Positions 3,013 to 64,000 of a DNA stretch of 64,000 nucleotides are shown here, piece after piece. Each line of letters opens with the position of its first letter. Positions within the stretch are counted from its first letter, which is position 1. Made by a program: the position numbers and the translations under genes. The notes beneath the pieces are model-generated. The model was not told the origin of the DNA. It saw only the letters and a list, made by a program, of their open reading frames with translations, and did not search any database. This stretch comes from an uncultured Patescibacteria group bacterium (GTDB lineage Bacteria > Patescibacteriota > JACMRA01), in contig CALITC010000005.1 of NCBI GenBank assembly GCA_938041505.1, forward strand, positions 1,106 through 65,105. Direction: 5' to 3'.

Positions 3013-3112
3013 CTAAGTATAGCTTATATTATGGACTCATTCAAGTAATTTTTAAAAAAAAACATCTAATAAATCAATAAATTAAGTAAATAAGCCCTTT
3101 AGTAAAAACTAT

Positions 3113-4039
3113 CTAATCAAGAATGTGCTGTTTAATTGTCTGGGTATCTATGTGGTATTTAGGCCACAGATCTTTACCAACTCTGGCAGACTTCCCAAAT
3201 TCTTTACGAATACACACATGTCTGATATCCCGGGCTAGCTTATATCGAGCCATTAATCCAAAAAGAAGACTACCGATTCCTCCAAATTCTTGATGTTCTT
3301 CTACGATAATTATCTTACTATAAGAATAGATGAGTTTAGCGAGCTTCTCTTGATCGTAACTAGTCAAATCCACCATAAATACAAGATCGCATGGGGTGTC
3401 TTCGTCTTCATAAGCTTTTAATGACTCCTCGCTGATTAATCCAGCCGATATAACAAGAGCCTTGGCTTCCTCTTCGCTTTTTAGAAATACAAAACCGTTA
3501 TTTGTGATTTCACCAAGTTCAACTTTATCTAATTCTGCCTTGTGCTCCATACGAGGTTGGAATAATACGGTAGGGTGGTAGTCTTCTGTAATCATTTGTT
3601 CGGTACACCAAACCGCACTCTCAGTGTTAAACGGGACCAAAACTCGAAGGTGAGGCAAGCAAAGCGTCAATGCTAAGTATTCCAAGCATTGATGTGTTGC
3701 TCCATCGCCGCCAACCGATAGGCCATAGTGAGAAGAGATTATACGCACTGGAGTGTGATTGTAGCAAACAGAAGTTCGGAGCTGATCCCAGTTACGACCG
3801 GGATGAAAGGCTGCGTAACTTCCTACAACGGGCTTCTTCCCAGAGAGAGAGAATCCGGCAGCCATGCTCATAAGTTCCTGTTCGGCGATACCAGCTTCGA
3901 CAAACTGATTGGGTAGTTTTTCGCGTATTTTATCAAAACCAACTGATTCAGCCAAGTCAGCAGTCATGGCTACAACGCTCGTATCTTCTAAGGCGAGGTT
4001 GTATAATGTGGAGGCAACAGTCTTACGAATTGAAGGCAT
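3113..4039 (-). CDS. Transketolase C-terminal (pyrimidine-binding plus C-terminal domain) subunit-like protein
   Basis: 308 aa with DLAESVGFDKIREKLPNQFVEAGIAEQELMSMAAGFSLSGKKPVV and HYGLSVGGDGATHQ, typical of the C-terminal half of split transketolases. Confidence 0.85.
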   Translation of the reverse strand: MPSIRKTVASTLYNLALEDTSVVAMTADLAESVGFDKIREKLPNQFVEAGIAEQELMSMAAGFSLSGKKPVVGSYAAFHPGRNWDQLRTSVCYNHTPVRIISSHYGLSVGGDGATHQCLEYLALTLCLPHLRVLVPFNTESAVWCTEQMITEDYHPTVLFQPRMEHKAELDKVELGEITNNGFVFLKSEEEAKALVISAGLISEESLKAYEDEDTPCDLVFMVDLTSYDQEKLAKLIYSYSKIIIVEEHQEFGGIGSLLFGLMARYKLARDIRHVCIRKEFGKSARVGKDLWPKYHIDTQTIKQHILD

Positions 4040-5719: not shown

Positions 5720-7858
5720 ATGACCATGAATTCGACTTACGATCCCAAGCAATATGAAGCTAAGATCAACACCAGCTGGCAAGAACAAAAAGTAGGAGAA
5801 GTCAATGAGCAAGGCCCGGATGCTAGTAGCACTCATACAATCCTTATGCCACCTCCGAATCTCACAGGAGTGTTGCACGCGGGGCATTCGTTCCAGCACT
5901 ATCTCATGGATACTATTTCCAGAATCCATCGCCAGCAAGGAGATCTGAGTCTATGGCAACCGGGGATCGATCATGCAGGTATTCAACTCGAAGGTGTTAT
6001 AGATAAGATGTTTAAGAGTGGGGATGTTGAGCTACCAAATGAAGTAACTACGCACTCAGATTATCCAGAAGATATTGATGAACTACCCAAATTCCTCAAA
6101 ACTAATTTTAGACAATTATGGCTCGAAACCGCTTGGTCCAAAGTCAACGAATGGCGAAATACTCAGCGAGATCAAGCCACTATCTTAGGTGATACTCCAG
6201 ACTATTCTCGCAATCTATTCACGCTCGATCCGCAAGCAGTGGACATGGTCAATCATGCTTTTATAAAGTACTGGGAAGATGGTCTCATCTACAAAAAATC
6301 CTACATGATCAACTGGTCTGTAGGCTTACAAACTGCCCTCAGTGATGTCCCTGAAGATATCGGTCACGAGACGCGCAAAGACCCGTTTGTTACCATTAAA
6401 TACCAATTGGCCCTCAGCCCAAATAGCGAGTATGAACCAATCCTTACAGACGATTTTGTCAAAGTAACTACGGTTCGCCCAGAGACAATTTTCTCAGATC
6501 AATTTATCTTAATTAACGAGCATGCATCTGCAATCTCCACAGAAATACTTGAAAAGATAAAATCCAGCGAAGAGGCTTTTTTGGTATTACCGTTGTCTCA
6601 AACAGATCTCTTTGAACAGAAGATATTTTTGCCGATTAAGCTGACGGTTGATAGCCAAGAAGTTGATCCAGAATTCGGCACAGGCGCGCTCAAAGTAACC
6701 CCTCCTCACGATATTCACGACTACGAGCTCTACGAGAAATATCAGCTCAAGTCTTTTGTAATCCAGGATGGTAAGCGAGTAACGAGAGATCCGTTTGAGA
6801 GTAGTGTTCAACGAAGTGGTAAGTTATCAGCATTGGCCGGACAGTTCAAAGGTTTGACGATGTTAGAAGGGCGCAAACAAGTAACCAAAGCTTTGATCGA
6901 ACGTGAACTTATACCACACGTTGAGTCAAGCACATCTAACGACGAATCCAAGGTGGAGAAGTGGATCGCCAATTATTTCAAGACCACTCCGAAATCTGTG
7001 ACAGGGTGGGGTAATTACGAGGTGCAATGGCAATATGAGCACAATGTAACTATTTGTGAGCGAAGTAAAACCATCGTGGAACCGCTTATTAGTGAAGAGT
7101 TCTTTATTTCATATTCAAACCCAACCTCCAGAGACAACAAAACTTTGGCACGGCTTGCCACAGAAGGTATAGAAGAAACAAACTATTACCCAGCTAACTT
7201 CAAAAACCTTGCCAATAACTTCATAGATAACATCCACGACTGGTGTATCTCCAGAGATTTGGTCTGGGGGCACTCCATGCCGATCTGGTACAACTTAGAG
7301 GTTAATCCGGACAAACGATTCTACAGTAGCCAAGAAGTAGCTTCAGACACTCAAAAGGCTGCCAGTTGCAAAGTTCAAGTGGACGAACCTACGGAGCCTG
7401 GCACTTGGGTCCAAGAAACCAAAATTCTCGATACTTGGTTTTCTTCTTGTCTGTGGCCACTCTCTTCACTTAACTACCTCCAACATCAAGAACATTTCGC
7501 TAAATTCTACCCAACTGACGAGATGATAACTGCCCGCGAGATCTTCTACGCCTGGGTAGTTCGTATGACTATGCTCGGTAAATACTTTACTGGAGAAATA
7601 CCTTTTAAATCTGTAGTAATCACCCCCACAATCCAAGACGAAAAAGGTCGAAAAATGAGTAAATCACTCAAGAACGGCCTGGACCCAGTCGAGGCCATAG
7701 ACAAATTCTCCAGCGATTCCCTCCGCCTAGCCATGCTCTCAGGCATGTACCCAAATAGAAATATGAAAATGGGTGGCAGTATTGCTGACAAATCACTAGA
7801 AAAATACCGTAACTTCGGCAACAAACTCTGGAACGTAGCCAGATTCTTAAAAGACTAA
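5720..7858 (+). CDS. valS: Valyl-tRNA synthetase, N-terminal piece (Rossmann catalytic core plus CP1 editing domain)
   Basis: HIGH-type PPPNLTGVLHAGH, editing-domain TTVRPETIFSD, KMSKS. Ends ...YRNFGNKLWNVARFLKD then TAA, the point where the anticodon-binding domain normally begins. Confidence 0.9.
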   Translation: MTMNSTYDPKQYEAKINTSWQEQKVGEVNEQGPDASSTHTILMPPPNLTGVLHAGHSFQHYLMDTISRIHRQQGDLSLWQPGIDHAGIQLEGVIDKMFKSGDVELPNEVTTHSDYPEDIDELPKFLKTNFRQLWLETAWSKVNEWRNTQRDQATILGDTPDYSRNLFTLDPQAVDMVNHAFIKYWEDGLIYKKSYMINWSVGLQTALSDVPEDIGHETRKDPFVTIKYQLALSPNSEYEPILTDDFVKVTTVRPETIFSDQFILINEHASAISTEILEKIKSSEEAFLVLPLSQTDLFEQKIFLPIKLTVDSQEVDPEFGTGALKVTPPHDIHDYELYEKYQLKSFVIQDGKRVTRDPFESSVQRSGKLSALAGQFKGLTMLEGRKQVTKALIERELIPHVESSTSNDESKVEKWIANYFKTTPKSVTGWGNYEVQWQYEHNVTICERSKTIVEPLISEEFFISYSNPTSRDNKTLARLATEGIEETNYYPANFKNLANNFIDNIHDWCISRDLVWGHSMPIWYNLEVNPDKRFYSSQEVASDTQKAASCKVQVDEPTEPGTWVQETKILDTWFSSCLWPLSSLNYLQHQEHFAKFYPTDEMITAREIFYAWVVRMTMLGKYFTGEIPFKSVVITPTIQDEKGRKMSKSLKNGLDPVEAIDKFSSDSLRLAMLSGMYPNRNMKMGGSIADKSLEKYRNFGNKLWNVARFLKD

Positions 7859-10873: not shown

Positions 10874-11662
10874 ATGACCGAATTAGCACCTGCCTCGCAG
10901 TGGATTCTCCAGCGATATATAAGCCTAGAAGAGGAACTGGCCATTAACTTAGAGAAATACACTCTTGGTCATTCTATTGACGAGTTGTATAAGTTTCTCT
11001 GGGATAGTTATGCTGACTGGTACGTTGAGTACCTCAAAACAGACGACATGCAAAAAGAATTTGCCAAGCAGCTCTTTACCCAGTTTGTAATCACACTCCA
11101 TCCATACATGCCCTTTGAGACAGAGGCGTTGTGGACAGAGTTCGCTGACCAAGACACTCTGCTAGCCAAAGAATTGAAAGACGCTAATTGGAGTAAAAGC
11201 TTCGAGATCAATCCACAAGCTGTGCAGGAGTTCCAGAACATTATTGATGTCATCACGAGCCTCCGGTCCCTGCGAGGCTTGTTCGCTATTGATCCTGCCA
11301 CCAAACTCGAAGTGAACTCTAACTCCAAAGAGCTGGCAACATACAAAGAGTATCTCAATCTTTTAGGGCGCACCACAATCCAAGAAGGTGAGGAGCTATC
11401 GTATAAGCTTGAACAGGGAAGAATCAAATTCAGTATCGACATACTCAGCTATATTCCGGATGTGGAGGTAGAGAAAAATCGTACTAACAAGAATATTCAA
11501 GCCCTGGAAAAACAAATCTTTGGTCTAGACAAAAAACTAACTAATTCAAAATTCCTCGAGAATGCCACCGAAGAGGTTATCGAAGAGTCCAAAGCCAACT
11601 TGTATTCACGGAAGCAAGAACTTATGGAGCAACAACAAAAACTACAACTTTTTAACAACTAA
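10874..11662 (+). CDS. valS: Valyl-tRNA synthetase, C-terminal piece (anticodon-binding helical domain plus C-terminal coiled coil)
   Basis: Begins MTELAPASQWILQRY... with FLWDSYADWYVEYLK (class Ia F.CDWYlE..K motif). Ends in a heptad-rich coiled coil (..QALEKQIFGLDKKLTNSKFLENA..), the ValRS C-terminal signature. Confidence 0.85.
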   Translation: MTELAPASQWILQRYISLEEELAINLEKYTLGHSIDELYKFLWDSYADWYVEYLKTDDMQKEFAKQLFTQFVITLHPYMPFETEALWTEFADQDTLLAKELKDANWSKSFEINPQAVQEFQNIIDVITSLRSLRGLFAIDPATKLEVNSNSKELATYKEYLNLLGRTTIQEGEELSYKLEQGRIKFSIDILSYIPDVEVEKNRTNKNIQALEKQIFGLDKKLTNSKFLENATEEVIEESKANLYSRKQELMEQQQKLQLFNN

Positions 11663-14753: not shown

Positions 14754-16613
14754 CTATTTATTCTTCCGGGAACGCTTCATCTTATAATAAATCCAGAGCA
14801 GCGCCGTGACAAACCCCTCGACTATAGTCAACTGCATAATGGTGCCTGCCCATTTAGCTGCTCCGGTTCGAACTAAACCAGCCTGGACCTCTTCCTCAAC
14901 CATCGGTGCAAATTGCACATTGGCAGTAGTGATTTTATCGCTACCGACAACGAATGAACGAGCATCAATAAATGAAACGTCGGTAACTTGCGGGTTAGCA
15001 CAGGTTTGTACCTCTCCTAGCGCATTAGCAGGGAGAGTAGGAATTAAGAATTCAACCTGATCTTCGGACTCAGTAAAGGTTGTACCAGGAATGTTAGTGG
15101 AATTAACGACGGAAGTGCCAGTCACAAATGGAGCTCTGCCTGAGTCTGTGGTGAGTCCAACTTTAACATTCGTTAAGTCATACGTGTTATTGTTGGCCAC
15201 CTGTGCAATTGCGCACACTTGTTTGTCGAGCTCAATCTCATTATCAGGGGTGTCTTTAGAAAGAGAAACAATTGGCTCAAGGTAATCCTCTACGGTAATC
15301 GTGAAAGCAGTCTGTGTAGTACGGCCTAAACCATCAGTTGCATCAACTGTGAAGGTCTGTGGTCCGAGAGGTTCGTCGATAGGAGCGGTGCAAGTCAGTG
15401 TATTCCCGTTAACAGTTGGTGTCGACTCAGTGCAAAAAGTAGGAAGCCCAGTAATATTCAAACCCGTAATAGTAGTCGAAGTATCTGTTGTGGCAGTAAT
15501 TGGGTCGCTGGTAATTGTCTGCCCACGCTTAACAGTTAGGTCTTGCCCTGGTAAAATAAGAGGGTCTGGGTTTGCAACAGGATTAATGGTAATATCAACA
15601 ATACTTACTGGTCCAAAAGATTGCGGCGCAACAGGTGTATCCTGAGGTGAGATATCAATATCATCCGGGAACACAATAGAAGATGTTATACCGTCACTAG
15701 CATACCATCTGAATTCATCTGCTCCAGTTTCACCAGGGTTAGGTATATAGCGGAGTTGGTTGATATTTGCGATATTAACAGTTGTAATACCCGTAAGCGG
15801 AGTTTGAGTCGAACCATCGTCAAGCACAAGATTACCTTTGCTTGGAAGAAGGGTAATTGTGACAGATTGTATGTCATAGCCTTCACTCGCACTTGGAGAA
15901 GAACCAGGGTTGGCATCCAAGAAAAGCTGGTCTGGATCTTGAAAATTCTGCTCAAACAGTGAAGGATTGCTAGCCCCTGGGTCAAAGCTATAAGTAGTAT
16001 CTTGGTTTGTAAAGATTGAAAAATCATCAACTTGCGGTATATCATTGCGTGCTTCTACATCTATAGTTACTGTAGAAGTTGCACAACCTGGAATGCTAGC
16101 ATCACCAAGGGCTGCCGGATTATTATCACAAACCTCATAGCTAAATGTCAGCGGCCCATGATAATTCTGAGAAGTGTCGACCGAAACCGCTCCATGAGTT
16201 GGTATAACTCCTTGTGCTTGAGCTGCGGTGTCGTTGGTGCCGTTTGCGGAGGTGTCCACGGTAATAGTGGAGGCTGTATCGCCTGCAATTCCGGTAATCT
16301 GGGTATCACTAATTATCCACAGATCTCCTTCGCTAAAGTAGTAGCTACTATTGTTGTAGTCCTCGTCATAATCATTGTCCAATACATCGATAATTCGAGC
16401 TGCTGAGTCTTCGCTGATTGTTGCTACATCAGGAATAGCAACTGGTGTATAGTATCCTATCGCCTCAGCAAATCTCTCAAGCTTAGTGCTGCCTAGAACC
16501 ATATCCATGAGCTCTGGATTTAGATTTGCTGTGTATCTAAGTCCAAAGTTAAATACTACCATCGAAATAACCACTGTGGAAAGCAACTTCCAAATATCTT
16601 TTTTTACTGCCAT
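14754..16613 (-). CDS. Surface adhesin-like protein (cadherin/Ig-like repeats) with C-terminal LVRTG sorting-signal-like tail
   Basis: N-terminal TM/signal. VIDVLDNDYDEDYN-type cadherin-like motif. C-terminus GLVRTGAAKWAGTIMQLTIVEGFVTALLWIYYKMKRSRKNK = motif, hydrophobic span, basic tail. Confidence 0.7.
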   Translation of the reverse strand: MAVKKDIWKLLSTVVISMVVFNFGLRYTANLNPELMDMVLGSTKLERFAEAIGYYTPVAIPDVATISEDSAARIIDVLDNDYDEDYNNSSYYFSEGDLWIISDTQITGIAGDTASTITVDTSANGTNDTAAQAQGVIPTHGAVSVDTSQNYHGPLTFSYEVCDNNPAALGDASIPGCATSTVTIDVEARNDIPQVDDFSIFTNQDTTYSFDPGASNPSLFEQNFQDPDQLFLDANPGSSPSASEGYDIQSVTITLLPSKGNLVLDDGSTQTPLTGITTVNIANINQLRYIPNPGETGADEFRWYASDGITSSIVFPDDIDISPQDTPVAPQSFGPVSIVDITINPVANPDPLILPGQDLTVKRGQTITSDPITATTDTSTTITGLNITGLPTFCTESTPTVNGNTLTCTAPIDEPLGPQTFTVDATDGLGRTTQTAFTITVEDYLEPIVSLSKDTPDNEIELDKQVCAIAQVANNNTYDLTNVKVGLTTDSGRAPFVTGTSVVNSTNIPGTTFTESEDQVEFLIPTLPANALGEVQTCANPQVTDVSFIDARSFVVGSDKITTANVQFAPMVEEEVQAGLVRTGAAKWAGTIMQLTIVEGFVTALLWIYYKMKRSRKNK

Positions 16614-26245: not shown

Positions 26246-29200
26246 TTAAGCTACGTCGCCGTAAGGCTTAGTCTGGAGAGGAGAGGCTTCAACTACAGCA
26301 TGTTTTGGCGGAATATTCATAGTGCTTAATGAGTAAGTTCCATCATCGGAACGTCCTGCGTAATAGGTTTCCTTATTTGATATATTACTAGAGGAAAGAC
26401 TATCAAGCCTTCGCGGAGCCAAAGGAAGGGTGTTAAGCAAGTTTTCAATTATTTTCGCTGCTTGTTTATCTGCGATACCGTATATTGGTAAGTCAAGTTT
26501 TACAGAATTTGATGCATTATAACTGCTTTCGGTCACAGGAACAAAACCGCGATCAGCTAAAATTAGTTTATCGGTATATCCTTTCTTAGTAACAAAAGGG
26601 AGTACGTTAAGATCTATAAATTGCTGAATTATTTGGGCCTCTTCGACGGTGGCGGGCACATTTTTGAAAAGCTCTGCCGATTCTTCAACTCGTTTCTCCA
26701 TTTGTTTGGCGTTAGGGCGAATAAGGTCTTGTCGAGCAAATTCTACTTCCTCATTAACTTCATCCAACTCCTGCACTTCGGTATACTCTATCTCAGGACT
26801 CCTCTCGATAACCGTTGGCCCATTATTACCACCATATGCAATATCATTAACAAACCCGAAGCCATCAATAGGTTTGGCAGTCTCGTCTTCGCTGAGGTTT
26901 CGAAAATCAGGCTCAGAGATATTACTAGATGACTCCTTTGCTCCACTCTCTAAGCTTACTACCTGTACGTCCTCCTCAACATTATTTGGAGGGAGTTGGT
27001 TGTGTGGAGAAGATTCAAATAATTTATCGTTATTGTATTGCTGAGCTCTGTTATGAATTGATGAATTAGGTGTGCTCGTAATCTTATATTCAAAAGTCTC
27101 ATCATTATATTCAACGTTATAGCCAAACTGAGCGAGAGCTGGAATGAGCGAATTCTCAATAATTTGGTTCTCTTTTTCAGTAATTGGGCGGTCAGTATTG
27201 TTCCAGTCAGAGACGACAGTATAGGCAATTTTCTCAAACGTTTTATCATTTTTAATCATCATCTGATCCAGGACATCAATTTCTCTTCGAATACCCTCAG
27301 CTTCTCGGTATTCGCTTTCTGTCATGGTTTGCTGGTCTTTGATTTCCTGCAGTCTTTGCATATATACACCGCGAGCGTTCAAATTACTTTGTAGATTGTC
27401 CACATGTTTGTTCAGCATTTCCTCAATTTGCCGATAATCTTCTGAGATATACTCAGCTTGGATGTCCTCTTGTGGTTTGTTATTGTACGCAACTATTTCG
27501 CCCGGGTTCGATTTCACTGTGTAACTAAATTCAGCTTTACCATCGTTGTTAAGTCTGGTGTTATCTTCGATTGCAAATCCAAGTGCTGCAAGCTCTGCTT
27601 GAAAGTCCTGACTTTTCATGACTGCTTGAAAGTCCTTCATGCGAGAATATTCTTCGTAAGACTGACCTTCCACTGGATTTGATCCTGTAGGGTAATTTAA
27701 GGCTCTTTCTGTGTAACTCCTTATATTCTCTACAAGTGTATCGACATCTTGAATGGTATCCAGCCCGCCTTTGGTAGTAATGGAATTAAGTTCCTTAAGT
27801 TGCTTTTTGTAAGCAAATTCTTGTTCTGCGATGGTTGACCAGTCATTTTGATTCTTAAATGGCTTATAGTTAATATTCTTGTACCCTCCAAGTTTCTGCT
27901 CTTGCCCATCAAAGTCAACATACGACTGGGCAGAAGGGGCAGTAGTAACTAAGAACTTTTTAAGATCTTTGTCATAAGCCAGGCCAAATTGAGAATTCTG
28001 CAGCTGCGGAATGATTTTGTCTCTTATCAGGGTATTGTTATATTCAACAGCAACCAAAGATTGGTCGAGAAAGCCTTTATATTTATGGTTTATTTCCTGT
28101 AAGAGTTCCTGGTTTGCAGTATTCGAATCTGGAGCTGTTTTAATCCATTTGGGGTCTTGAATATTACTAAGTAGATTCTTGAAAAAGTTGCGCTTAGTTC
28201 TATCAAGCTGGCGAAGGTCGTTGTTATTCGCACTTAATTGATCAGATATAGTATCAAGCTGATTTTCTAACTCTGACTTCTTATCAGAATTCTGCTCAAC
28301 TGAATCTGTTGATTGCTCCTCAAAAGGATTATTGTCGGTATTTTCAGACTGCTCAATTGTAGATATCTCTTGCTTTATAATACTAATCTGTTCGTTCAAA
28401 GATTTTCCTTTATCAGAAAGAGCCTGAATCTGCGTGTTTATTTTGTCAGTGGATTTGATTGCGTCCTCAATATTATCAAAAGCTTGTGATGGGGTTGAAA
28501 ATTGCTCATTGTTCAAAATAAATTTTGGATCTTGTCGAAGTTTCTCAGTAGCTGCTTTTTTTTCCTCAGCTTCTAGCTTTGCTTTTTCACGAGCTTCTTC
28601 TTCGTATTTGGCATAAGCTTCCTTAAACTCGTCCTCACCAATACTAACATCGTAAGATGGAGAGCTTTTTGTTTGTTCAGATGGGTTTATTTTATATTTG
28701 AATAGCGGTCCTATTCCTACACTAATCCCAATATCCTCTAACTGAGGTAGAATAGAATTTGTGATTATATCTTTCGTCAATTCTTTGGACCTTTGAGGGT
28801 CTTTTTGGTAGGTAGGGTGCCTAGTTATCCATTTTGGATCGTTTATTTTCTCAACGAGCATTCGCGCAAAACTAGCTACATCTTCTTCAGACAAAGTACC
28901 TTCCAATTCTTCAATGCGGTCGTCAAATGCTTCGATATTGTCTTTAATAGTGGATATTTCTGATTGAATTTCTAGAGACTCGTTCGAATCATCTTCAAAA
29001 TCAACTAAATCTGCTTCCATCTTAACACTTTGAGATATCAAATCTTGGCGTGCGTTCTTGGCTTCGGTTATAGTGAATTGATTTCTTTTTATAAAGTCGA
29101 TTGCGGTGTCTAAATTCGCTTCTGCTAGAGCTGGGTTCGAAAACTTATTTTTGCCTAGAAGAAACTTCTTATTATCACTCTCCGACTCGACTTTGCCGTA

Positions 29201-29692
29201 TGATCGATTAAAAAGATCTTCAGAGTAATCTCTTGTATTTTTAAATGTCTTTGCTGAACGGTTTGAGATACTATTTACTTTCTTATCTTTATTTAGGGTT
29301 TCATTAAATTGATAAGCTTGTTGTTGCACACTGTCTTCACTATATTGATTTTGTGTTTTTTCAGTTGTTGGATTTGATGTTAGATTCGAATCCTGCGAAA
29401 CTTCTTTATTTCCTGATATGAAATTATAGCCACTGGTAATAAGGCCTGCGCCCCATCTGAAGATGCCCGAATCACCTAAGTCCCAACTAAACTGAAGCTT
29501 GAGTGATTCGCTATTCTTTTTAACAACCTTAGGATCACCACCTTTTTGCTTTTTTCTAATTTCTTGACCGTATTTAATATGTTTTTCTTTTTCTGCTTTT
29601 CGTTTTTCAGCTATACTTGGCTTCCTTTTCTCCCTGTTATTCTGGAGGTTGTTATTCTTACCAATTTTTTTAATTCCTTCAAAAAAAGCCAT
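26246..29692 (-). CDS. Giant (1148 aa) modular coiled-coil protein of unknown function
   Basis: Two about 200-aa repeats (FLLGKNKFSNPALAEANLDTAIDFI...DPKWITRHP...ILPQLEDIGISVGIG / FILNNEQFSTPSQAFDNIEDAI...DPKWIKTAP...IIPQLQNSQFGLAYD) plus shorter [IL]P.[LF]...G[FY] modules. Confidence 0.7.
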   Translation of the reverse strand: MAFFEGIKKIGKNNNLQNNREKRKPSIAEKRKAEKEKHIKYGQEIRKKQKGGDPKVVKKNSESLKLQFSWDLGDSGIFRWGAGLITSGYNFISGNKEVSQDSNLTSNPTTEKTQNQYSEDSVQQQAYQFNETLNKDKKVNSISNRSAKTFKNTRDYSEDLFNRSYGKVESESDNKKFLLGKNKFSNPALAEANLDTAIDFIKRNQFTITEAKNARQDLISQSVKMEADLVDFEDDSNESLEIQSEISTIKDNIEAFDDRIEELEGTLSEEDVASFARMLVEKINDPKWITRHPTYQKDPQRSKELTKDIITNSILPQLEDIGISVGIGPLFKYKINPSEQTKSSPSYDVSIGEDEFKEAYAKYEEEAREKAKLEAEEKKAATEKLRQDPKFILNNEQFSTPSQAFDNIEDAIKSTDKINTQIQALSDKGKSLNEQISIIKQEISTIEQSENTDNNPFEEQSTDSVEQNSDKKSELENQLDTISDQLSANNNDLRQLDRTKRNFFKNLLSNIQDPKWIKTAPDSNTANQELLQEINHKYKGFLDQSLVAVEYNNTLIRDKIIPQLQNSQFGLAYDKDLKKFLVTTAPSAQSYVDFDGQEQKLGGYKNINYKPFKNQNDWSTIAEQEFAYKKQLKELNSITTKGGLDTIQDVDTLVENIRSYTERALNYPTGSNPVEGQSYEEYSRMKDFQAVMKSQDFQAELAALGFAIEDNTRLNNDGKAEFSYTVKSNPGEIVAYNNKPQEDIQAEYISEDYRQIEEMLNKHVDNLQSNLNARGVYMQRLQEIKDQQTMTESEYREAEGIRREIDVLDQMMIKNDKTFEKIAYTVVSDWNNTDRPITEKENQIIENSLIPALAQFGYNVEYNDETFEYKITSTPNSSIHNRAQQYNNDKLFESSPHNQLPPNNVEEDVQVVSLESGAKESSSNISEPDFRNLSEDETAKPIDGFGFVNDIAYGGNNGPTVIERSPEIEYTEVQELDEVNEEVEFARQDLIRPNAKQMEKRVEESAELFKNVPATVEEAQIIQQFIDLNVLPFVTKKGYTDKLILADRGFVPVTESSYNASNSVKLDLPIYGIADKQAAKIIENLLNTLPLAPRRLDSLSSSNISNKETYYAGRSDDGTYSLSTMNIPPKHAVVEASPLQTKPYGDVA

Positions 29693-29703: not shown

Positions 29704-30000
29704 CTAAGATAGATTTTCTATCATTTTCAACAAGGATTGTTGGAATGCTTTGGTTGTTTCAGGAAATTTCTTTAAGATTGACGTGTCTCCGCTTGAAAAA
29801 GCTTGTTTGATTCTTATGGAGTCTTTTTTTGAATAGTTCTCTTCCATGTAGCTTCCAATATAGCCACTTACTAGATCAAGTACTTCTTTCATAACTTGTT
29901 CACGTTCTTCTACTGGATAATCCTCTAGTTCCTTACCTGTAACAAACCCGCATAGGGCGTTCAACATATCCTGTTGAGAAATGTTTTTATTTCTATTCAT
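29704..30000 (-). CDS. Hypothetical protein (98 aa)
   Basis: ORF 11 nt upstream of the giant gene on the same strand. No motif recognised. Confidence 0.5.
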   Translation of the reverse strand: MNRNKNISQQDMLNALCGFVTGKELEDYPVEEREQVMKEVLDLVSGYIGSYMEENYSKKDSIRIKQAFSSGDTSILKKFPETTKAFQQSLLKMIENLS

Positions 30001-30095
30001 ATAATGATAATTTTTTGTTTCCTAGTCAACCCAGCGGACACTCGAGTGACATTATTTTTGTGTATCTATAAAGTATACACTAATATATAGTTTCG

Positions 30096-30128
30096 TGCAA
30101 AATAAAATACCCCTTGCATAGGGTATTT
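30096..30128 (-). terminator. Rho-independent terminator of the 826-aa surface protein gene
   Basis: On the minus strand, AAATACCC/GGGTATTT 8-bp stem with an 8-nt loop, followed by TTATTTTGC, about 20 nt after the TAG stop. Confidence 0.6.
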
Positions 30129-30147
30129 ATGTGTATCTCACGTTATT

Positions 30148-32628
30148 CTATCGACCACCTGTTCTAATTAGTCCTTCAGAAGCAGTATCTTGAGGTACTG
30201 ATGGATTTCCTCCAGTTGCTCCGAATGGGAGACAAACTTCGGGAACGTCCACACCCGTATCGTTATTCAGTGCGTCTTCTAAGATATCATCACATACAAT
30301 CTCATCTCCGCTTTCGGGGTCGATCACTGGACCGGCTGAACCGAATGCCCCTGTGGTAAATCCAAAGTCAAATGAGTGATTATTAGCACCTGAAGCACCA
30401 GTAGTGAAGGCAGTTGTAACGAAGCTTCCATTAGGGATACCATCAGAGTCTATACCTTCGTCACTTGCGTCAGAGAGGGTAGGGGCATAGCCGTTTAGTG
30501 CCTCTTGAGTTGTGTCAATTCGAATCGAATAGTCTGTACGTAGTCCAAGATCTAAATTGTAGAGAGTGCTGGTAGAATCTTCGCCAACCCCACTGGAGAA
30601 GAGGTAGTGCCCGTTCTCATTGGTAGTAGCAGTTGCAACCAATTCACCATCTTTATTGAGTAATTCTACAGTTATCCCGGTCAAAGCTGGATCAGCTGGA
30701 TCTTGTTCACCATCTCGATCGTTATCAAACCAGACCCTGTTACCAATTTCAATTGGTGCTGCTGAGCAGAGCAATTCAATATCCCCAAGGCCGTTAGCTT
30801 TATCAAAGAAATCGAAACTTCTTGTTCCATCGACCAATCTATAAGACTGCTCCCATTGACCTGTCTCTGTATTAAACCATCTAAGTCCTTGATCTCGATA
30901 AGTATCTGTTTCGCCATCCTCATAATAGAATGGAATTGGGTTGTAGACACTTGAAATAAGGGATTCTCTATTTTGGTCATACGCAAGACTTCCTAATCCC
31001 AATTCTGCGTGTGTAGTTCGTTGTTGACCGTCAACATAATTATCACCAACGAAGAATTCATTCACTCCATCACTACCTGTGTTAGTAGGGCAGGAATCAT
31101 CAGAACCCTCAATTATCCATGTGCTACCTTGATCTCCGCATGCTTTTAGAATATCTCCAGCAGCTTCAGATTCGTAGATTGTAGGGTTAGATGTGTCAGT
31201 ACTAAATGCATGCCCAGCTTGATCTCCAAACCGATCTCTCAAACCAATTAGCATATTACCATTCTCATCAAATTCTATATCACTAAGCAAAGCTTGCGGC
31301 TTACTGGCAACACTCACATCAGAGTCATTACCTTGAGCTAATTCAAGTTCCACTTCATTCCAGTCATTAACCCATGCATTCCAGTTAGCAGACATTGGTG
31401 GTACAAACCAATTTGCTACACTCCCCCTCTCATAGCTTAATCCAAATTGCAAAACTGCATTTGTCTCGAATAAGCCTGTAGACGTATCAAACTTGTAGAC
31501 TTGTGCGGTGCTTCCGTCTTGGCATGTAGTTCCGACAAACAAAGAACCTGGTTGCGATCCTAACCCAAAAGCAGCACCTGAAGAAGCTCCACAATTATCT
31601 GGAATCGCTGTTGTGGATATAGTTTCTCCTGAAACTACGTCGATTGCATAAAGCTGCTGGTCAAAGAGGTTGACTGTGTAGAGGGTGTTAAGATCAGTAC
31701 TTATCTCCAAGTCTCCTAGACCTGATAACCCAACTTGATCAAATGAATACGGGTCATGAAGCCAGCAATCTTCAGTACTTTCTGGATTATACGCCGCTTG
31801 ACCGTCCACGATACATAAACCATCTTCATTCTCAAATTGAGAAGTAGGGTGGGTATCTACTCCTGCGTTAAGACTAGTAAGAACACTGGCTGTTCCAGAA
31901 TCTCGATCCACTTTATAAATTGCTCCTGTGCCTCCAGGGCCAAAACCAGTATGTCTCTTCATAAACGCTGAAACATAAATTGAGTTAGATGAAGGGTCAT
32001 GGGCTAATCCATAAGTAGAACCGATTTCAGACGCAGGGACCATCAAGTCGTGAGCAGTTGGGTTGCTATAGCTGGCAATTGTTGCCGCGTCTGGCGTGAG
32101 AGAGCTTTCGCCAGCTGACCCATCGATATCTACAAGAGCAGGGTCGTTAGTTAGTCGGCCATCATCGGTTTGTTTCCCCGCAACGAAACAGGTAATAGCA
32201 ATATCTGGATTATTACCACAGAAATCACTTGGTATGTGTAGTCCAAAATCTTGAACGTTTTCGCTGGTTGTCAAAAATCGCACACTGCTTGATGACCCAT
32301 TGTCTACACTTGGTGCATAGCCCATAGCTGCAAAATCTTCTATCTGCAATCTGTAATCACCAGCTTCAACATTAAAAGTGTAGCTTCCATTCAAGTCGCT
32401 AGTTGTTTCTGCAACCAGTCCTCCTGCATTATATATTGAGACTTGGATATCACCAATTCCAGACTCTCCATTATCAAAAACTCCATTCAAATTACTATCA
32501 TTGAAGACCGAGCCGCTTATGTTCTCTAGCGCGAGTCCTTCAAAACTAAAAAGCATAAAAGCGAGAGGAGCTAACATTATTCCTCCAATTAATTTCTTCC
32601 TAAACATATCTATTTTTTTTATTAACAC
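30148..32628 (-). CDS. Secreted surface protein with SdrD-B/Cna-B-like domains at both ends and a central beta-propeller-like region; ends in LIRTGGR
   Basis: Signal peptide. GSVFNDSNLNGVFDNGESGIGDIQVSIYN..GSYTF and GNRVWFDNDRDGEQDP..LTGITVELLNKDGE..NGHYLF are SdrD B-like repeats. C-terminus ...ASEGLIRTGGR then TAG. Confidence 0.75.
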   Translation of the reverse strand: MLIKKIDMFRKKLIGGIMLAPLAFMLFSFEGLALENISGSVFNDSNLNGVFDNGESGIGDIQVSIYNAGGLVAETTSDLNGSYTFNVEAGDYRLQIEDFAAMGYAPSVDNGSSSSVRFLTTSENVQDFGLHIPSDFCGNNPDIAITCFVAGKQTDDGRLTNDPALVDIDGSAGESSLTPDAATIASYSNPTAHDLMVPASEIGSTYGLAHDPSSNSIYVSAFMKRHTGFGPGGTGAIYKVDRDSGTASVLTSLNAGVDTHPTSQFENEDGLCIVDGQAAYNPESTEDCWLHDPYSFDQVGLSGLGDLEISTDLNTLYTVNLFDQQLYAIDVVSGETISTTAIPDNCGASSGAAFGLGSQPGSLFVGTTCQDGSTAQVYKFDTSTGLFETNAVLQFGLSYERGSVANWFVPPMSANWNAWVNDWNEVELELAQGNDSDVSVASKPQALLSDIEFDENGNMLIGLRDRFGDQAGHAFSTDTSNPTIYESEAAGDILKACGDQGSTWIIEGSDDSCPTNTGSDGVNEFFVGDNYVDGQQRTTHAELGLGSLAYDQNRESLISSVYNPIPFYYEDGETDTYRDQGLRWFNTETGQWEQSYRLVDGTRSFDFFDKANGLGDIELLCSAAPIEIGNRVWFDNDRDGEQDPADPALTGITVELLNKDGELVATATTNENGHYLFSSGVGEDSTSTLYNLDLGLRTDYSIRIDTTQEALNGYAPTLSDASDEGIDSDGIPNGSFVTTAFTTGASGANNHSFDFGFTTGAFGSAGPVIDPESGDEIVCDDILEDALNNDTGVDVPEVCLPFGATGGNPSVPQDTASEGLIRTGGR

Positions 32629-32736: not shown

Positions 32737-33882
32737 TCATACTCTCCAATTAACAATTAGTGATGAATGGTCAATATCGCCAAAAGGTTCTGGTTCAATT
32801 CGAGTGACTAAGCAATCAATGTCGGTTATTGCTAAGTCAAGTAGCCACCGAGCCTCAATTTTGTTTAGTAAAAAGTTGAAAAAATTGGGTGCGTAATCTG
32901 ATAGTTTTATGTTAATTGTGGATTGATAAGTTCCGTCTAAGTTTGCGATTCGGTAATGGGATTTTTTAAGAAGTCTGGATAATTGAGCTCTTTCGAGATA
33001 ATGAGGAATATTTTTATGGGTAAGAAGTGCAGATACTGCATTTTTTAAGAAGCCGTAGGGAATAGCACTTAATCCGAATCCAGAGTTCAGGGTATTGCTA
33101 CCATAGATATTCATATCTCCAGTCATCAAAAAGGAATTATGTGTATCATGACGCATGGTTGAGCTTACAATACTCTCCAATCGTTCTTTCTTTCGGCTAA
33201 TCGGTGAGATATAGGTGTTGGCCATGGTAATCCTTTTCTTACCGCACTCTATATCATAGAAAAGTGTAGAATTAAAAAGAAGCATATCCGAAGCTTGAAA
33301 ATGAGATTGATAATGGTTAACCTTAGGTATTCCAGTTTGGTGGAATAGTAAGCGAAAATTCCCCAATGAAATCTTCTTCTTACTAAGCACCAGCAACCCA
33401 CTGTCCTGTGAACCGTGAAAACGATGTTTCAAAAATATATGCGGTACAAAAACGTAGTTGTAAGCACCCTCCATGCACAGCTCCCTTATATATTTTTTCT
33501 CGAGCGGGAAGTCTTGGAAGTGTACAATATCAAAATCGTGAGATGCGATATATTTCTTGAGCTTTGGTAACAGAATATTCTCTTGAGTCCCTCTGTCTAA
33601 ATCATCAAAAGCATTCGAGTCCACACCAAAACCTCCGACATTCAAAGAAAGTAATTTAAAAAATTGTTGATCATTACGTTTATCGAACCGCTCGATATCT
33701 ATATTTGAAAAGCCCACTTGCATCCCTTTCCAAGTAAGTGTGTCAGATTCTATCTGAAGTTCAATTAAATTGTCCTTACCGGCCTTTAAATATGTCTTTA
33801 ATAATTGCGAGAGTACTGGATGGTTGTATTCTTCGAGGAGGTTCTGTAACTCTCTTTCGTCAAAAGTGTTTGGTGGATTCAT
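32737..33882 (-). CDS. Endonuclease/exonuclease/phosphatase (EEP) family protein, divergent
   Basis: DIVHFQDFP (QE-like), LMTGDMNIYGS (GDFN-like) and GDIDHSSLIVNW (SDH-like) occur in the EEP order. Confidence 0.55.
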   Translation of the reverse strand: MNPPNTFDERELQNLLEEYNHPVLSQLLKTYLKAGKDNLIELQIESDTLTWKGMQVGFSNIDIERFDKRNDQQFFKLLSLNVGGFGVDSNAFDDLDRGTQENILLPKLKKYIASHDFDIVHFQDFPLEKKYIRELCMEGAYNYVFVPHIFLKHRFHGSQDSGLLVLSKKKISLGNFRLLFHQTGIPKVNHYQSHFQASDMLLFNSTLFYDIECGKKRITMANTYISPISRKKERLESIVSSTMRHDTHNSFLMTGDMNIYGSNTLNSGFGLSAIPYGFLKNAVSALLTHKNIPHYLERAQLSRLLKKSHYRIANLDGTYQSTINIKLSDYAPNFFNFLLNKIEARWLLDLAITDIDCLVTRIEPEPFGDIDHSSLIVNWRV

Positions 33883-42350: not shown

Positions 42351-43760
42351 ATGGTAGACACTAATCCATACACTTTTCATGAATCTGTGGAAATTTCTAG
42401 ATCTGGTACATCTCATTCGGCATACGATCATGCAGGTGTACATATTGGTCAATATTATGCTACAGATTATGCAAGTGCTTCTTCTGATAGAATTGATATT
42501 TTATCAACCCGCGCCGGAACGGTTTTATTTGCGGGTTGGGATACATCTGGATATGGAAACCTTGTAATCATCCAATATGATAACGGCGAGTATGGTTATT
42601 ATGCGCATATGCGTGACAACACTCTTAATGTCTCTGTTGGCGAAGAAATAGGGCAAGGTCACATTCTAGGGGATATGGGTAACACTGGTTTCTCCACTGG
42701 CCGCCATCTCCACTACGAACGTCGGATACAAAGATTTGGACAAACTACGTCAAACACTTATATTCCAAATTTTGTTGGATTTTTTGAACCAGGATCGACA
42801 ACAGAACCAGAGCCTGAAATTCCTTTTGCTAAACATGATTTTAACGGTGATGGTATTTCTGATGTTGTTGTCCATAATAACACAACTCAAGCAGGAGAGA
42901 TATCTATCTGGTTCATGAATGAGAATGGCGATCTTGGATCTACTAAGCGAACTCTCCCTCTAGGATGGAGTCCAGACTGGAAAATCCTTTCTGCCGATGT
43001 TGATGTAGATGGTGATAAAAAAGGAGATATCTATCTCTACAATACTGTAACCAACGAAACTACTTTCTGGCTTGATAACGATTTGGCAGGCTTGAATTCT
43101 GTTCGTGGAGTTACAATGCCAGATGGTCATCAATATCAATTTGGAATTGTAGCGGATATCAACGGTGATAGTCGTGATGAAATTGGTTGGTACCGTGAGT
43201 CTGATAATCGTCTAGTATTTCATTGCTACGATGAGAACGCTCAGTATACTGGGTATTCAGCAGTCGATTCGCCTGATTCAGGTTACAGCTTGTTTGAAGC
43301 TGGTGACTTTAATAACGACGGAATTGAAGATCTATTAATGTATAATGCTACAACTGGCGGCCTATACACTGATTTCTACGACTCCAATGGTCAAGTAAGT
43401 TCTACTTTGACTCATGCAACTGTCTCACCTTCATCTGGTTGGAGACCTGCAGCTGTTATCGACGCTAATAATGATGGTCATGACGATCTGTTCTTTATGA
43501 GAGATCGTGGTGATATTACTCAATGGCAAGGTAACGAAGACGGATCTTTAAGTTCAGTTAGTTACACAAACCTACCGTTTAATCTTGGTTGGGAATTAGG
43601 TTCCTCAGGAGACTTCAACGGCGATGGCTTTGAAGAGTTAAGTTTTTACCGTCCCAGCGATGGTCGTCATACCATTTTATTGAACGGTGCTGACGGCCAG
43701 TTCGCAGGCGATGCAAGCTTCATTGCAAATCAAGTACCTGATTGGGATATTATTGCTTAA
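42351..43760 (+). CDS. M23 (LytM-type) metallopeptidase fused to FG-GAP/VCBS-like repeat beta-propeller
   Basis: HSAYDHAG...D..., GYGNLVIIQYDNGEYGYYAHM, GNTGFSTGRHLHYE. Then six D.[ND].DG..[DE] blades (FNGDGISDV, VDGDKKGDI, INGDSRDEI, FNNDGIEDL, ANNDGHDDL, FNGDGFEEL). Confidence 0.8.
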   Translation: MVDTNPYTFHESVEISRSGTSHSAYDHAGVHIGQYYATDYASASSDRIDILSTRAGTVLFAGWDTSGYGNLVIIQYDNGEYGYYAHMRDNTLNVSVGEEIGQGHILGDMGNTGFSTGRHLHYERRIQRFGQTTSNTYIPNFVGFFEPGSTTEPEPEIPFAKHDFNGDGISDVVVHNNTTQAGEISIWFMNENGDLGSTKRTLPLGWSPDWKILSADVDVDGDKKGDIYLYNTVTNETTFWLDNDLAGLNSVRGVTMPDGHQYQFGIVADINGDSRDEIGWYRESDNRLVFHCYDENAQYTGYSAVDSPDSGYSLFEAGDFNNDGIEDLLMYNATTGGLYTDFYDSNGQVSSTLTHATVSPSSGWRPAAVIDANNDGHDDLFFMRDRGDITQWQGNEDGSLSSVSYTNLPFNLGWELGSSGDFNGDGFEELSFYRPSDGRHTILLNGADGQFAGDASFIANQVPDWDIIA

Positions 43761-43800: not shown

Positions 43801-44737
43801 TAATAAACCCCAATCACGAAACAACATACGCAAATATCTTCCGAATGTAATGCGCTAGATATCCATTGATTGATCTAGGTAAACTAGTTACTAATCCATA
43901 CCGTTCTTTCAGCTCTCCAAAGACTGTTTCGACTCGACTACGTTTGTTCATCATTTTTTGTTGCCAGTGGGTGGCTAATGTCTTCATATTCTTGCGCACT
44001 GTAGTGAGTATATGATTCTGATTTATCCACGCTGCTTGAATTAGTTCTTGTCCTAGATACCCAGCGTCTCCTACCACAAGACACTTCTTCATCTCTTTTA
44101 AAAATTCTTTGAGTGGTGTCCGATCATTAACACTCCCAGTAGTGAATCGAAAACTAAGCAGCTCTCCTTGTTTGTTGCAAATGATGTGGAGCTTCATTCC
44201 GTAGAACCATCCCAAACTACTTACTCCACGACTAGAAATACTCTTGGCGGTTCTATGTTTAGTCCACCGATAGATCTTACACACTGGTAAACTAGTAGAG
44301 TCCACAAAACACACCACATCTTCTTTACTAACTAGCTGCAGGAGAGTGTGAATACTCTGCAGCAAGTACGGAGCGTACTTGTTCATTAGATTCACGAAGT
44401 TTGCATACTCAGGGAGTGTGAAGTCACTGCCATACTTCTCTTTCAAAAGTAAATGCAAGGCTTTAAGGGTCTTAATCTCGTACTTACATTGCAAGACCAC
44501 GATTGTCCCAATCTCACTTAAAGATAAAGAGGGCTTTCTCCCAACTCTTTTAGGGGAGAACAATGCTAAGTAGTCATCTAAAATACAGTAAAGAGTGACA
44601 AGATCTAAATTTTGAAGTGAAGTAGGAGTGTTTGCTAAAGAGATAGTTGAAGTCATACAACTCCACTGTCCCTCATTTCAAACAACAATTACAACCCCTA
44701 ACGGGGTTGTGTTGTATTTCATGATTCGGGTTGAATA
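43801..44737 (-). mobile_element. IS982-family insertion sequence (approximate ends)
   Basis: Single DDE transposase ORF flanked by imperfect inverted repeats: AACCCCAATCACGAAACAACA (from 43806) versus the reverse complement of ...TGTTGTATTTCATGATTCGGGTT (to 44732). No clear target duplication seen. Confidence 0.6.
43814..44656 (-). CDS. IS982-family DDE transposase
   Basis: FVDSTSLPVCKIYR...GVSSLGWFYGMKLHIICNKQGELLSFRFTTGSVNDR...VGDAGYLG...RSRVETVFGELK are the blocks characteristic of IS982 transposases. Confidence 0.85.
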   Translation of the reverse strand: MTSTISLANTPTSLQNLDLVTLYCILDDYLALFSPKRVGRKPSLSLSEIGTIVVLQCKYEIKTLKALHLLLKEKYGSDFTLPEYANFVNLMNKYAPYLLQSIHTLLQLVSKEDVVCFVDSTSLPVCKIYRWTKHRTAKSISSRGVSSLGWFYGMKLHIICNKQGELLSFRFTTGSVNDRTPLKEFLKEMKKCLVVGDAGYLGQELIQAAWINQNHILTTVRKNMKTLATHWQQKMMNKRSRVETVFGELKERYGLVTSLPRSINGYLAHYIRKIFAYVVS

Positions 44738-63184: not shown

Positions 63185-64000
63185 TTAGTACCCGCCTGTT
63201 CTGATCAGTGTTGAGTTGTCTGTTGTTGGTTCTTGAGTTTCTTCTTCATCCGCCTCGTCTGCCTGAAGCATGATTCCGGTGCCTGATATATCACTTACCG
63301 CATAGTACATAGTACCTTCGAGCTCTTCAATAGTCACCCTTGCATCATCGAGAGGTAGTCTTTCTGCCCCTGCACACTCAGGTGAAATATCAGCAAAGCT
63401 ACTGACTCCTGGGCAGATTATCATTGCATCCATGTTTTCAGCGAAAGGTACATACATAGTGTAATTACCTGTCACACCTGGAGCTGTGCTTAGGTTATGT
63501 ACGAAGGCCATATTATTTGCAGCATCTGTAGCCCCTGCTACACCAGACCAGTCAAGATCCGAATTAAATGCAGCTTCTGCTTGAGCTAAGATACCGTTGT
63601 CTCCATTCCTTAGCAAGAGACTCTCTGTGTTTCCCTCCACGACTCCAACATCTTCTTGATCGTCAACACTCTCACCAGAGATGAGTTCTACTGCCAACGC
63701 ACTATCAATATCTTGTACAAAATACCTGAAGAACTCGTTTAGCTTGGTTACAAATGGCTGGCAGCCATTGGCTGGGCTGATTACATTATCATTTTCGGAT
63801 GGATCTGTATCCAAGTCTGAACACGCAGATCCTAGGATGAATAATCCGCTATCAGAATCCCTCAGTACTCCATTTATATCACTTCCAGAAACATTATCGA
63901 ATGTGTAAAGTTTTTGAAAACTTCCTGCCAAATCATACACCGCGATGTATGAGACACTATTTGTGGAATCTATCTCCTTGGTTGCATAATCATCATCAAA
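63185..64000 (-). CDS. Surface/secreted protein, 3' part (frame stays open to the window edge); ends in LIRTGGY
   Basis: No stop in frame between 63941 and 64000, so the gene is probably truncated by the window. Acidic C-terminal linker EADEEETQEPTTDNSTLIRTGGY then TAA. Confidence 0.6.
   Translation of the reverse strand, partial: FDDDYATKEIDSTNSVSYIAVYDLAGSFQKLYTFDNVSGSDINGVLRDSDSGLFILGSACSDLDTDPSENDNVISPANGCQPFVTKLNEFFRYFVQDIDSALAVELISGESVDDQEDVGVVEGNTESLLLRNGDNGILAQAEAAFNSDLDWSGVAGATDAANNMAFVHNLSTAPGVTGNYTMYVPFAENMDAMIICPGVSSFADISPECAGAERLPLDDARVTIEELEGTMYYAVSDISGTGIMLQADEADEEETQEPTTDNSTLIRTGGY

Follow-up and report, generated by a model that had tools for sequence, protein, structure and literature searches.

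To our knowledge, every C-terminal sorting signal described so far in prokaryotes is tripartite, consisting of a motif, a transmembrane (TM) helix, and a cluster of basic residues. The processing enzyme is believed to depend on the membrane anchor to keep its substrate in place. Here, we describe a 64,000-nucleotide stretch of contig CALITC010000005.1 (the window) from an uncultured marine bacterium, in which the gene for an SdrD-like surface protein ends in ...SEGLIRTGGR (fuller tail, QDTASEGLIRTGGR), followed directly by a TAG stop. LIRTG fits the pattern L-x-x-T-G near the C terminus, with Ile replacing Pro, and the protein lacks a membrane-spanning segment after the motif, while a neighboring 619-amino-acid (aa) protein has one. 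We put at about even the chance that ends of this form, LIRTGG with a few hydrophilic residues behind it, make up a conserved subclass of the lineage's LPXTG-type (sortase-type) signal that does without the anchor, and the anchor-less end is probably functional. A conserved anchor-less version of the well-known cell wall sorting signal (CWSS) looks undescribed.

Among described systems, the LPXTG/sortase pathway (class A, E, and F type, monoderm) shares with this locus an L-x-x-T-G at the C terminus of exported, Ig-rich surface proteins, after a flexible linker. It differs in that the anchor-less proteins have no TM helix or basic cluster, carry only 1 to 9 residues after GG, read Ile instead of Pro, and leave curated models silent. 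The PEP-CTERM/exosortase, PGF-CTERM/archaeosortase, GlyGly-CTERM/rhombosortase, and MYXO-CTERM/myxosortase systems likewise place a short C-terminal motif on unrelated exported proteins of one genome, and GlyGly-CTERM, like LIRTGG, includes a GG. However, these intramembrane-processed domains need a TM helix abutting the motif and an Arg cluster, whereas the LIRTGG proteins are without a TM helix, and in the lineage's TM-bearing signals a spacer of LPXTG style separates motif and helix. Outside sorting signals, SUMO precursors end in ...QTGG plus a tail of 2 to 11 residues, asparaginyl-endopeptidase ligases cut between N and HV, and penicillin-binding proteins (PBPs) cut between D-Ala and D-Ala. 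Ubiquitin-like precursors and substrates of short-leaving-group transpeptidases resemble the LIRTGG ends in having ...TGG with a short, variable, dispensable tail, where the energy of the terminal peptide bond could drive ligation. Ubiquitin-like systems, however, are cytoplasmic, ATP dependent, and built on a beta-grasp fold, whereas the LIRTGG protein is predicted to be exported, has a tail that is disordered after an SdrD-B Ig-like domain, and shows no homology to them. Engineered sortagging substrates (protein-LPETGG, LPETG-amide, LPRTG linkers) are soluble, end at the motif plus G(G), and are formally of the same design as ...LIRTGGR, but they are artificial and need high concentrations or evolved enzymes. 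BasO (BA1088) is a natural protein that, like the LIRTGG ends, has an LPXTG-like motif (LPHTG) without a hydrophobic tail (PMC3208642); it is, however, a single case that served as a non-sorting-signal control, with no conservation or recurrence reported, whereas LIRTGG recurs in several families and two genera. Apart from BasO and synthetic substrates, a full-text literature search with motif strings and for natural TM-less sortase substrates, which was not exhaustive, returned nothing relevant. Together with the curated-model searches, this agrees with the preliminary description of the sequence, which knew of no described case: neither kind of search found a conserved natural class of this sort.

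The end of the SdrD-like gene withstood several checks. The preliminary description had reported a stop right after the LIRTG motif, no downstream frame encoding a TM helix, and a terminator about 20 nt further on, and translation and the hairpin bore out each of these. The hairpin (30128..30105) has a 9-bp stem followed by TATTTT and begins 20 nt past the stop. No TM helix was found downstream of the TAG in three frames over 200 nt (maximum 17-residue Kyte-Doolittle mean, 1.31), all three frames run into stops within a few codons, and read-through of the TAG would add 6 residues before another stop. Restoration of a TM segment at this gene by read-through or frameshift is ruled out, since no downstream frame encodes one. 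A Logan assembly made independently from a marine metagenome run (37-kb contig, ~17x) is identical to the window over 29800..30600, and TAG or TAA is the stop in 20 of the 22 window genes. The truncation was thus rightly called genuine: the independent assembly is without error, and the close ortholog shares the stop position. Chance does not account for the motif. The expected number of window proteins ending in LIRTGG plus one residue is ~3e-6, and two were observed; across all window open reading frames (ORFs) of at least 50 aa, RTG occurs only 5 times, 3 of them in the C-terminal motifs. A chance origin of the LIRTGG ends is excluded.

The sole close ortholog in the protein database, P0002 (locus L001; 65% identity), comes from a different sequencing run and lies in the same gene order as in the window (RecX, enolase, a 381-aa protein, SdrD-like protein). 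Its C terminus, ...TQNNESLIRTGGR, also reads LIRTGGR and is followed by TAG and its own terminator; the only close ortholog thus stops straight after the motif and has no TM tail. All 7 motif residues are identical between the two genes despite 3 synonymous codon differences (CTA/TTG, ACA/ACT, and CGA/AGA), while only 2 of the 15 residues preceding the motif are shared. Because an ortholog at 65% identity keeps the LIRTGGR end although its motif codons have changed synonymously and the linker leading up to it has diverged, the comparison indicates that this end is under purifying selection and is not a lesion. The motif is thus conserved, and it also recurs at the extreme C terminus of unrelated proteins.

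A six-frame survey of the window recovered a second gene, unrelated to the SdrD-like gene, whose N terminus lies past the window end and whose product has the tail ...TTDNSTLIRTGGY directly before its stop. No downstream TM helix, Pfam family, or protein database homolog was found for it. Altogether, three proteins in 64 kb share the signal, two of them anchor-less and one tripartite. Two further anchor-less ends come from a relative, L221 (GC content, 47 to 50%), whose local gene order matches that of the window at 10.8 to 19.6 kb (Pth, GT2 genes, Big_9, sulfotransferase, DUF2807, and the C-terminal gene of valyl-tRNA synthetase [ValRS]). One L221 contig encodes a TM-bearing LPRTGG protein together with two paralogs without a TM helix. 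The first is an intact 422-aa gene that ends in ...ATPALIRTGGDVNG (LIRTGGDVNG, then a stop), and the next gene begins 5 nt downstream; the second, a longer Big_9 gene at 1748..3790, ends in ...NSLIRTGGGDLFEKKL (LIRTGGGDLFEKKL, then a stop). All five anchor-less ends (two in the window, one in L001, and two in L221) read L-I-R-T-G-G plus 1 to 9 residues. They span four families that are unalignable or only distant paralogs, and they recur across at least two divergent genera. The residues after the motif vary: a single Arg in the SdrD-like gene and its ortholog, Tyr in the second window gene, and DVNG or GDLFEKKL in L221. A contig scan for L-I-R(AGA)-T-G-G-x-stop gave at least 117 matches; among the matches listed, most were short ORFs in noncoding frames (less than ~140 aa), and the four longest (186 to 338 aa) look unrelated, two of them being a TM-rich membrane protein. 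No motif tails and no CWSS-like ends were found in 12 JGI metagenome loci of the clade, anchored on the stand-alone ValRS C-terminal gene.

The same motif also occurs in complete sorting signals. The 619-aa Big_9/Ig-like protein of the window carries motif, spacer, TM helix, and basic tail (Table 1), and in its six orthologs (43 to 53% identity; GC content, 38 to 57%) L[V/A/P]R[T/S]G[G/A] precedes a TM helix and a basic tail, the motif of one ortholog being a literal LPRTGG. In another, P0204 (L227, 11700..12100), a frameshift falls right after LARTGG in a 3x long-read assembly, and the +1 frame restores the TM helix and basic tail. The hydrophilic spacer between motif and TM helix is about 5 residues long (4 to 8), and the motif series of the lineage comprises LPRTGG, LVRTGG, LARTGG, and LIRTGG. 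Because the 619-aa protein and its six orthologs carry all of these elements, their sequences indicate that L-[P/V/A]-R-T-G-G plus spacer, TM helix, and basic tail is the lineage's equivalent of LPXTG. The occurrence of this signal in the same genome and in relatives strengthens the sortase-type reading of the motif that had been proposed from the window alone. Position 2 is Ile in 5 of 5 anchor-less ends and in 0 of 7 TM-bearing ends, a contrast that is suggestive of Ile marking the anchor-less class as opposed to Val, Ala, or Pro in the TM-bearing one, although the seven TM-bearing ends all come from a single orthologous family and the difference may be a family effect. At their other end, members of the Big_9 family (the 619-aa protein and P0201 to P0207) share an N-terminal module in which a hydrophobic segment ending in FNFGLR(Y) is followed by xxxNPELM(D/E)(I/M)(I/V). 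Since conservation runs past the hydrophobic core, the sequences suggest a signal anchor or a specific export/assembly module rather than a generic signal peptide.

As far as their sequences allow us to infer, the anchor-less proteins are most likely substrates of a sortase, with just 3 to 11 residues released as the leaving group. After Sec export, a sortase-family cysteine transpeptidase would bind the exposed LIRTG and cleave the T-G bond, so that GGR, GGY, or GGDVNG is released. The preliminary description had put the leaving group at 1 to 2 residues, which does not fit such a cut: G and R follow the G of LIRTG, and the tripeptide GGR would be released. The protein would then be passed to an amine acceptor, which could be a peptidoglycan precursor or cross-bridge or another surface protein, with the energy coming from the peptide bond after Thr. 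Because that bond would supply the energy, at least a couple of residues would have to stay after the motif. Retention near the enzyme, normally provided by TM helix and basic tail, would need another source. For P0207, this could be its N-terminal membrane anchor, a hydrophobic segment that is conserved; otherwise, confinement in the wall or S-layer space might suffice, or a dedicated sortase paralog might bind the Ile variant more tightly. The signal peptide of the SdrD-like protein looks cleavable. In the AlphaFold2 (AF2) model, the motif is borne on a 50-residue disordered tail, as in wall-spanning linkers.

The choice of a sortase follows from comparison with other sorting enzymes. A hydrophilic spacer between motif and TM helix is typical of LPXTG/sortase signals and is absent from those of exosortase, archaeosortase, and rhombosortase, which are intramembrane enzymes (Haft). 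Because sortase acts outside the membrane, only a sortase-like enzyme among the known kinds of sorting enzyme should be able to handle a motif without a TM helix. In vitro, SrtA is routinely given soluble protein-LPETGG constructs as substrates (PMC9060782), and in living Staphylococcus aureus it incorporates TM-less LPETG peptides supplied from outside into the wall (PMC4723074). A free carboxylate directly on the Gly of the motif is thought to inhibit the enzyme (PMC4723074), which would explain why one or more residues are always kept after the motif. A more specific version of the proposal is that a dedicated sortase takes the anchor-less LIRTGG proteins as a cargo of their own and ligates them in trans once they are secreted and soluble, the acceptor possibly being the N-terminal Gly-Gly of spent membrane stubs (LxRT/GG, cut at the slash) or the wall of a partner or host cell. 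A stub acceptor would mean the reuse of spent anchors left by cut TM-bearing signals, and a partner or host wall might serve if the organism were an epibiont like its nearest named relatives, which belong to the candidate phyla radiation (CPR). We regard this version as quite unlikely.

Several observations weigh against sortase processing of the anchor-less ends, in addition to the possible family effect on the Ile contrast. The TIGR01167 and PF00746 anchor models and the NCBIfam and Pfam sorting-domain models gave no match to either the anchor-less or the tripartite tails at E values up to 10. No sortase (PF04203) was found by Pfam on ~68 window ORFs (E value up to 1 for the unannotated ones), and none by a TLxTC pattern and precomputed Pfam in ~300 kb of relatives' loci. 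The anchor-less proteins have no basic cluster at the extreme C terminus. The L221 gene at 1748..3790 is split by an in-frame TAA into called genes of 112 aa and 566 aa. When the hydrophobic domain and charged tail of S. aureus protein A were deleted, the protein was reportedly secreted and left unanchored, in work by Schneewind et al. from 1992/1993. Exogenous TM-less peptides need high concentrations (PMC4723074), and BasO of Bacillus anthracis (LPHTG, no hydrophobic tail) was treated as a nonsubstrate (PMC3208642). Finally, the organism, and with it the envelope type, is placed only tentatively, as probably CPR-affiliated or from another deep monoderm line; the best enolase match among GTDB representatives reached 51% and fell in assorted phyla, and 8-mers of ValRS matched nothing. 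Weakly in favor of a sortase, the nearest named relative by ValRS is a CPR bacterium, Candidatus Curtissbacteria (39% identity), and sortases are encoded by over half of the genomes in the CPR (PMC6744442). As for the split L221 gene itself, its interruption was seen in at least two independent assemblies (also in L222, while L223 holds the 3' part only); a pseudogene is one possible explanation, a nonsense allele carried by the whole population another.

Other explanations of the anchor-less ends deserve consideration. The proteins could be secreted or shed isoforms, released after Sec export, that keep the motif for noncovalent docking to a sortase or wall component or for hydrolytic trimming, with no transpeptidation. 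The classical deletions, which are said to turn TM-less LPXTG proteins into secreted ones, speak for this, as do the view of BasO-type proteins as nonsubstrates and the lack of a sortase near these genes. We nevertheless consider it unlikely, since a motif without catalytic use is not expected to be identical at 7 of 7 positions beside a linker with 2 of 15, and the six residues recur in unrelated proteins and in a relative of very different GC content. In another view, the ends are products of decay, in which nonsense mutation or deletion recently truncated tripartite signals and left functionless ends. Tail-less variants do arise, as in the distant homolog P0031, which stops after LPDTGE, and one LIRTGG gene of L221 has an internal stop. 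Against this, the stop position is kept between 65%-identical orthologs with synonymous changes inside the motif, an independent, unrelated gene shares the end, no downstream frame holds a TM remnant, and a terminator or the next gene follows immediately, all of which makes decay highly improbable.

It is also conceivable that another enzyme reads the Gly-Gly, either a peptidase that exposes ...TGG for subsequent ligation or an enzyme akin to PBPs or L,D-transpeptidases that would release 1 residue. GG is invariant in 5 of 5 anchor-less ends and the tails beyond it are 1 to 9 residues long, a variability shared with ubiquitin-like precursors, and an L,D-transpeptidase (YkuD) gene lies beside ValRS in a relative. 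We judge this very unlikely, however: ATP-dependent activation of the E1 type is implausible for exported proteins, the tail is disordered with no beta-grasp domain, no candidate enzyme is encoded nearby, and GG is also present in most TM-bearing signals, where an LPXTG reading is straightforward. An artefact of sequencing or assembly, or read-through or recoding that restores an anchor, has next to no probability. P0204 does carry an assembly frameshift after LARTGG (in a 3x long-read contig), but for the SdrD-like gene two independent assemblies agree base for base and the ortholog stems from a third data set; read-through of the TAG gives 6 codons and then a stop, and TAG and TAA are the usual stops in the window.

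If a natural motif-only class is conserved, it would mean either that sortases act on soluble substrates in vivo, as in sortagging, or that the motif has a second reader. It would define LxRTGG as an LPXTG variant of a deep marine lineage that current annotation models miss, and it would give annotators reason to keep motif-terminal proteins rather than discard them as truncated. It would also point to natural sortases tuned for minimal tags and to potential ligation tools. Were ligation in trans to prove true, sortase would serve in vivo as a protein ligase for free substrates and would release only three residues as it does so.

The protein that bears the motif is predicted to be an exported, adhesin-like surface protein with the motif at the tip of a flexible tail, as in wall-anchored proteins. 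The preliminary description gave its length as 826 aa; the ORF and its end stand, while from the likely start, which matches the database gene call and the aligned Met of the ortholog, the product is 819 aa long (Table 1). Export is suggested by a predicted signal peptide with a basic n-region, a hydrophobic h-region, and small residues at -3/-1, identified by eye. It is followed by an SdrD-B/CarboxypepD_reg-like Ig domain, a beta-propeller, an SdrD-B domain, a disordered tail, and LIRTGGR. Pfam recognized SdrD_B twice and CarboxypepD_reg; SdrD_B (PF17210), in two stretches, scored 102.8 bits against a cutoff of 29.7 and was thus above the Pfam gathering score. An AF2 model built from 45 homologs (mean pLDDT, 83.9) places Ig-like domains on either side of a large beta-propeller and leaves the last 50 residues disordered. 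Foldseek matched it to the B domains of S. aureus SdrD and to propellers of the TolB/YVTN/Lp49 type. The linker comprises a short conserved helix segment with Cys-x-Cys, then ~15 nonconserved residues, and then the motif. No RNA runs holding the gene were found.

Table 1. Coordinates of the features in the window and C-terminal ends of orthologs of the 619-aa protein
Feature	Position	Strand	Description
SdrD-like surface-protein gene	30148..32607	-	819 aa from ATG 32607; 826 aa from GTG 32628 (ORF list)
Predicted N-terminal signal peptide	32530..32607	-	MFRKKLIGGIMLAPLAFMLFSFEGLA; by inspection, no predictor; kept in ortholog P0002
Central beta-propeller-like domain	30763..32220	-	Without Pfam family; high-confidence AF2 model; Foldseek
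C-terminal SdrD B-like domain	30358..30750	-	Pfam PF17210; residues 627-757 of the 826-aa reading
Flexible C-terminal linker before motif	30172..30303	-	pLDDT <50 from residue 769
Terminal motif L-I-R-T-G-G-R	30151..30171	-	LIRTG at 30157..30171; TAG stop directly after, 30148..30150
Intrinsic-terminator-like hairpin	30095..30128	-	AAATACCCT-ATGCAA-GGGGTATTT plus T-run; sequence inspection
Second gene with anchor-less end, unrelated to SdrD-like gene	63185..64000	-	N terminus past window end; ends ...DNSTLIRTGGY; motif 63188..63208; TAA stop
Big_9/Ig-like surface protein, 619 aa	14754..16613	-	Canonical tripartite signal; reference for motif type
Complete sorting signal of the 619-aa protein	14757..14876	-	LVRTG-AAKWA-GTIMQLTIVEGFVTALLWIYY-KMKRSRKNK; motif, spacer, TM helix, basic tail
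P0201 C-terminal end			PLVRTGGKWAST..., then TM helix and basic tail
P0202 C-terminal end			PLARTGGEPYMG..., then TM helix and basic tail
P0203 C-terminal end			PLVRSGANRW..., then TM helix and basic tail
P0205 C-terminal end			TLVRTGGNTGT..., then TM helix and basic tail
P0206 C-terminal end			SLPRTGGRRWTG..., then TM helix and basic tail

Homologs at a greater distance from the SdrD-like protein (up to 36% identity) mostly have a different sorting signal where LIRTGG would stand. In at least 11 of the 45 aligned full-length homologs, this is an LPXTG-like motif (including LPATG, LPGTG, LPNTG, and LAETG) followed by a TM helix and an RRR or Arg-rich tail, which speaks for the sortase-type reading; two have C-terminal domains of the T9SS type. 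P0031, from a JGI metagenome (L215, 5935..5958), ends in ...SRLPDTGE and a TGA stop, where its nearest relatives continue with LPxTGE[ST]P, a TM helix, and RRR. No downstream TM helix was found for it in any frame, and a terminator-like hairpin follows; it represents an independent tail-less LPXTG end in a single sequence. Eight other homologs (P0004, P0009, P0010, P0015, P0016, P0019, P0021, and P0024), one with Anaerolineales named as its source, end in ...R-L-F-L-P-V-(A/I)-x-(K/R) or ...IYLPL(I/V)xxGxP directly before the stop and have no TM helix. Their motif is not assignable to a described sorting signal.

The surroundings of the SdrD-like gene hold further proteins without a recognizable family. 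Between enolase and this gene, as in locus L001, sits the 381-aa protein gene (32737..33882, minus strand), for which no Pfam or NCBIfam family and no PDB relative was found and for which a single-sequence AF2 model reached a pLDDT of only 32. Downstream lie a 98-aa ORF (29704..30000, minus strand) and a 1148-aa Lys/Glu/Asn-rich protein (26246..29692, minus strand), neither of which matched a family in Pfam/NCBIfam searches. Rfam and tRNA scans of the 64-kb window gave no matches.

The ValRS of the window is split into a 712-aa catalytic body (5720..7858, plus strand) and a 262-aa anticodon-binding domain with C-terminal arm (10874..11662, plus strand). The halves are 3 kb apart, with an amine oxidase, a YgjP-like peptidase, and a 225-aa ORF between them. 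Relatives keep the split: L218 has a 737-aa body, and the C-terminal gene stands alone in L223, L227, and L228. Twelve JGI loci also match the C-terminal part, whether or not it stands alone. Other relatives have a fused ValRS of 1000 to 1475 aa with a HAD-like insert at the same junction, and in one relative an L,D-transpeptidase (YkuD) gene adjoins ValRS. Elsewhere in the window, an IS-type DDE transposase (DDE_Tnp_1_3 / DDE_Tnp_1; 43814..44656, minus strand) adjoins an M23 peptidase with FG-GAP repeats (42351..43760), both recognized by Pfam.

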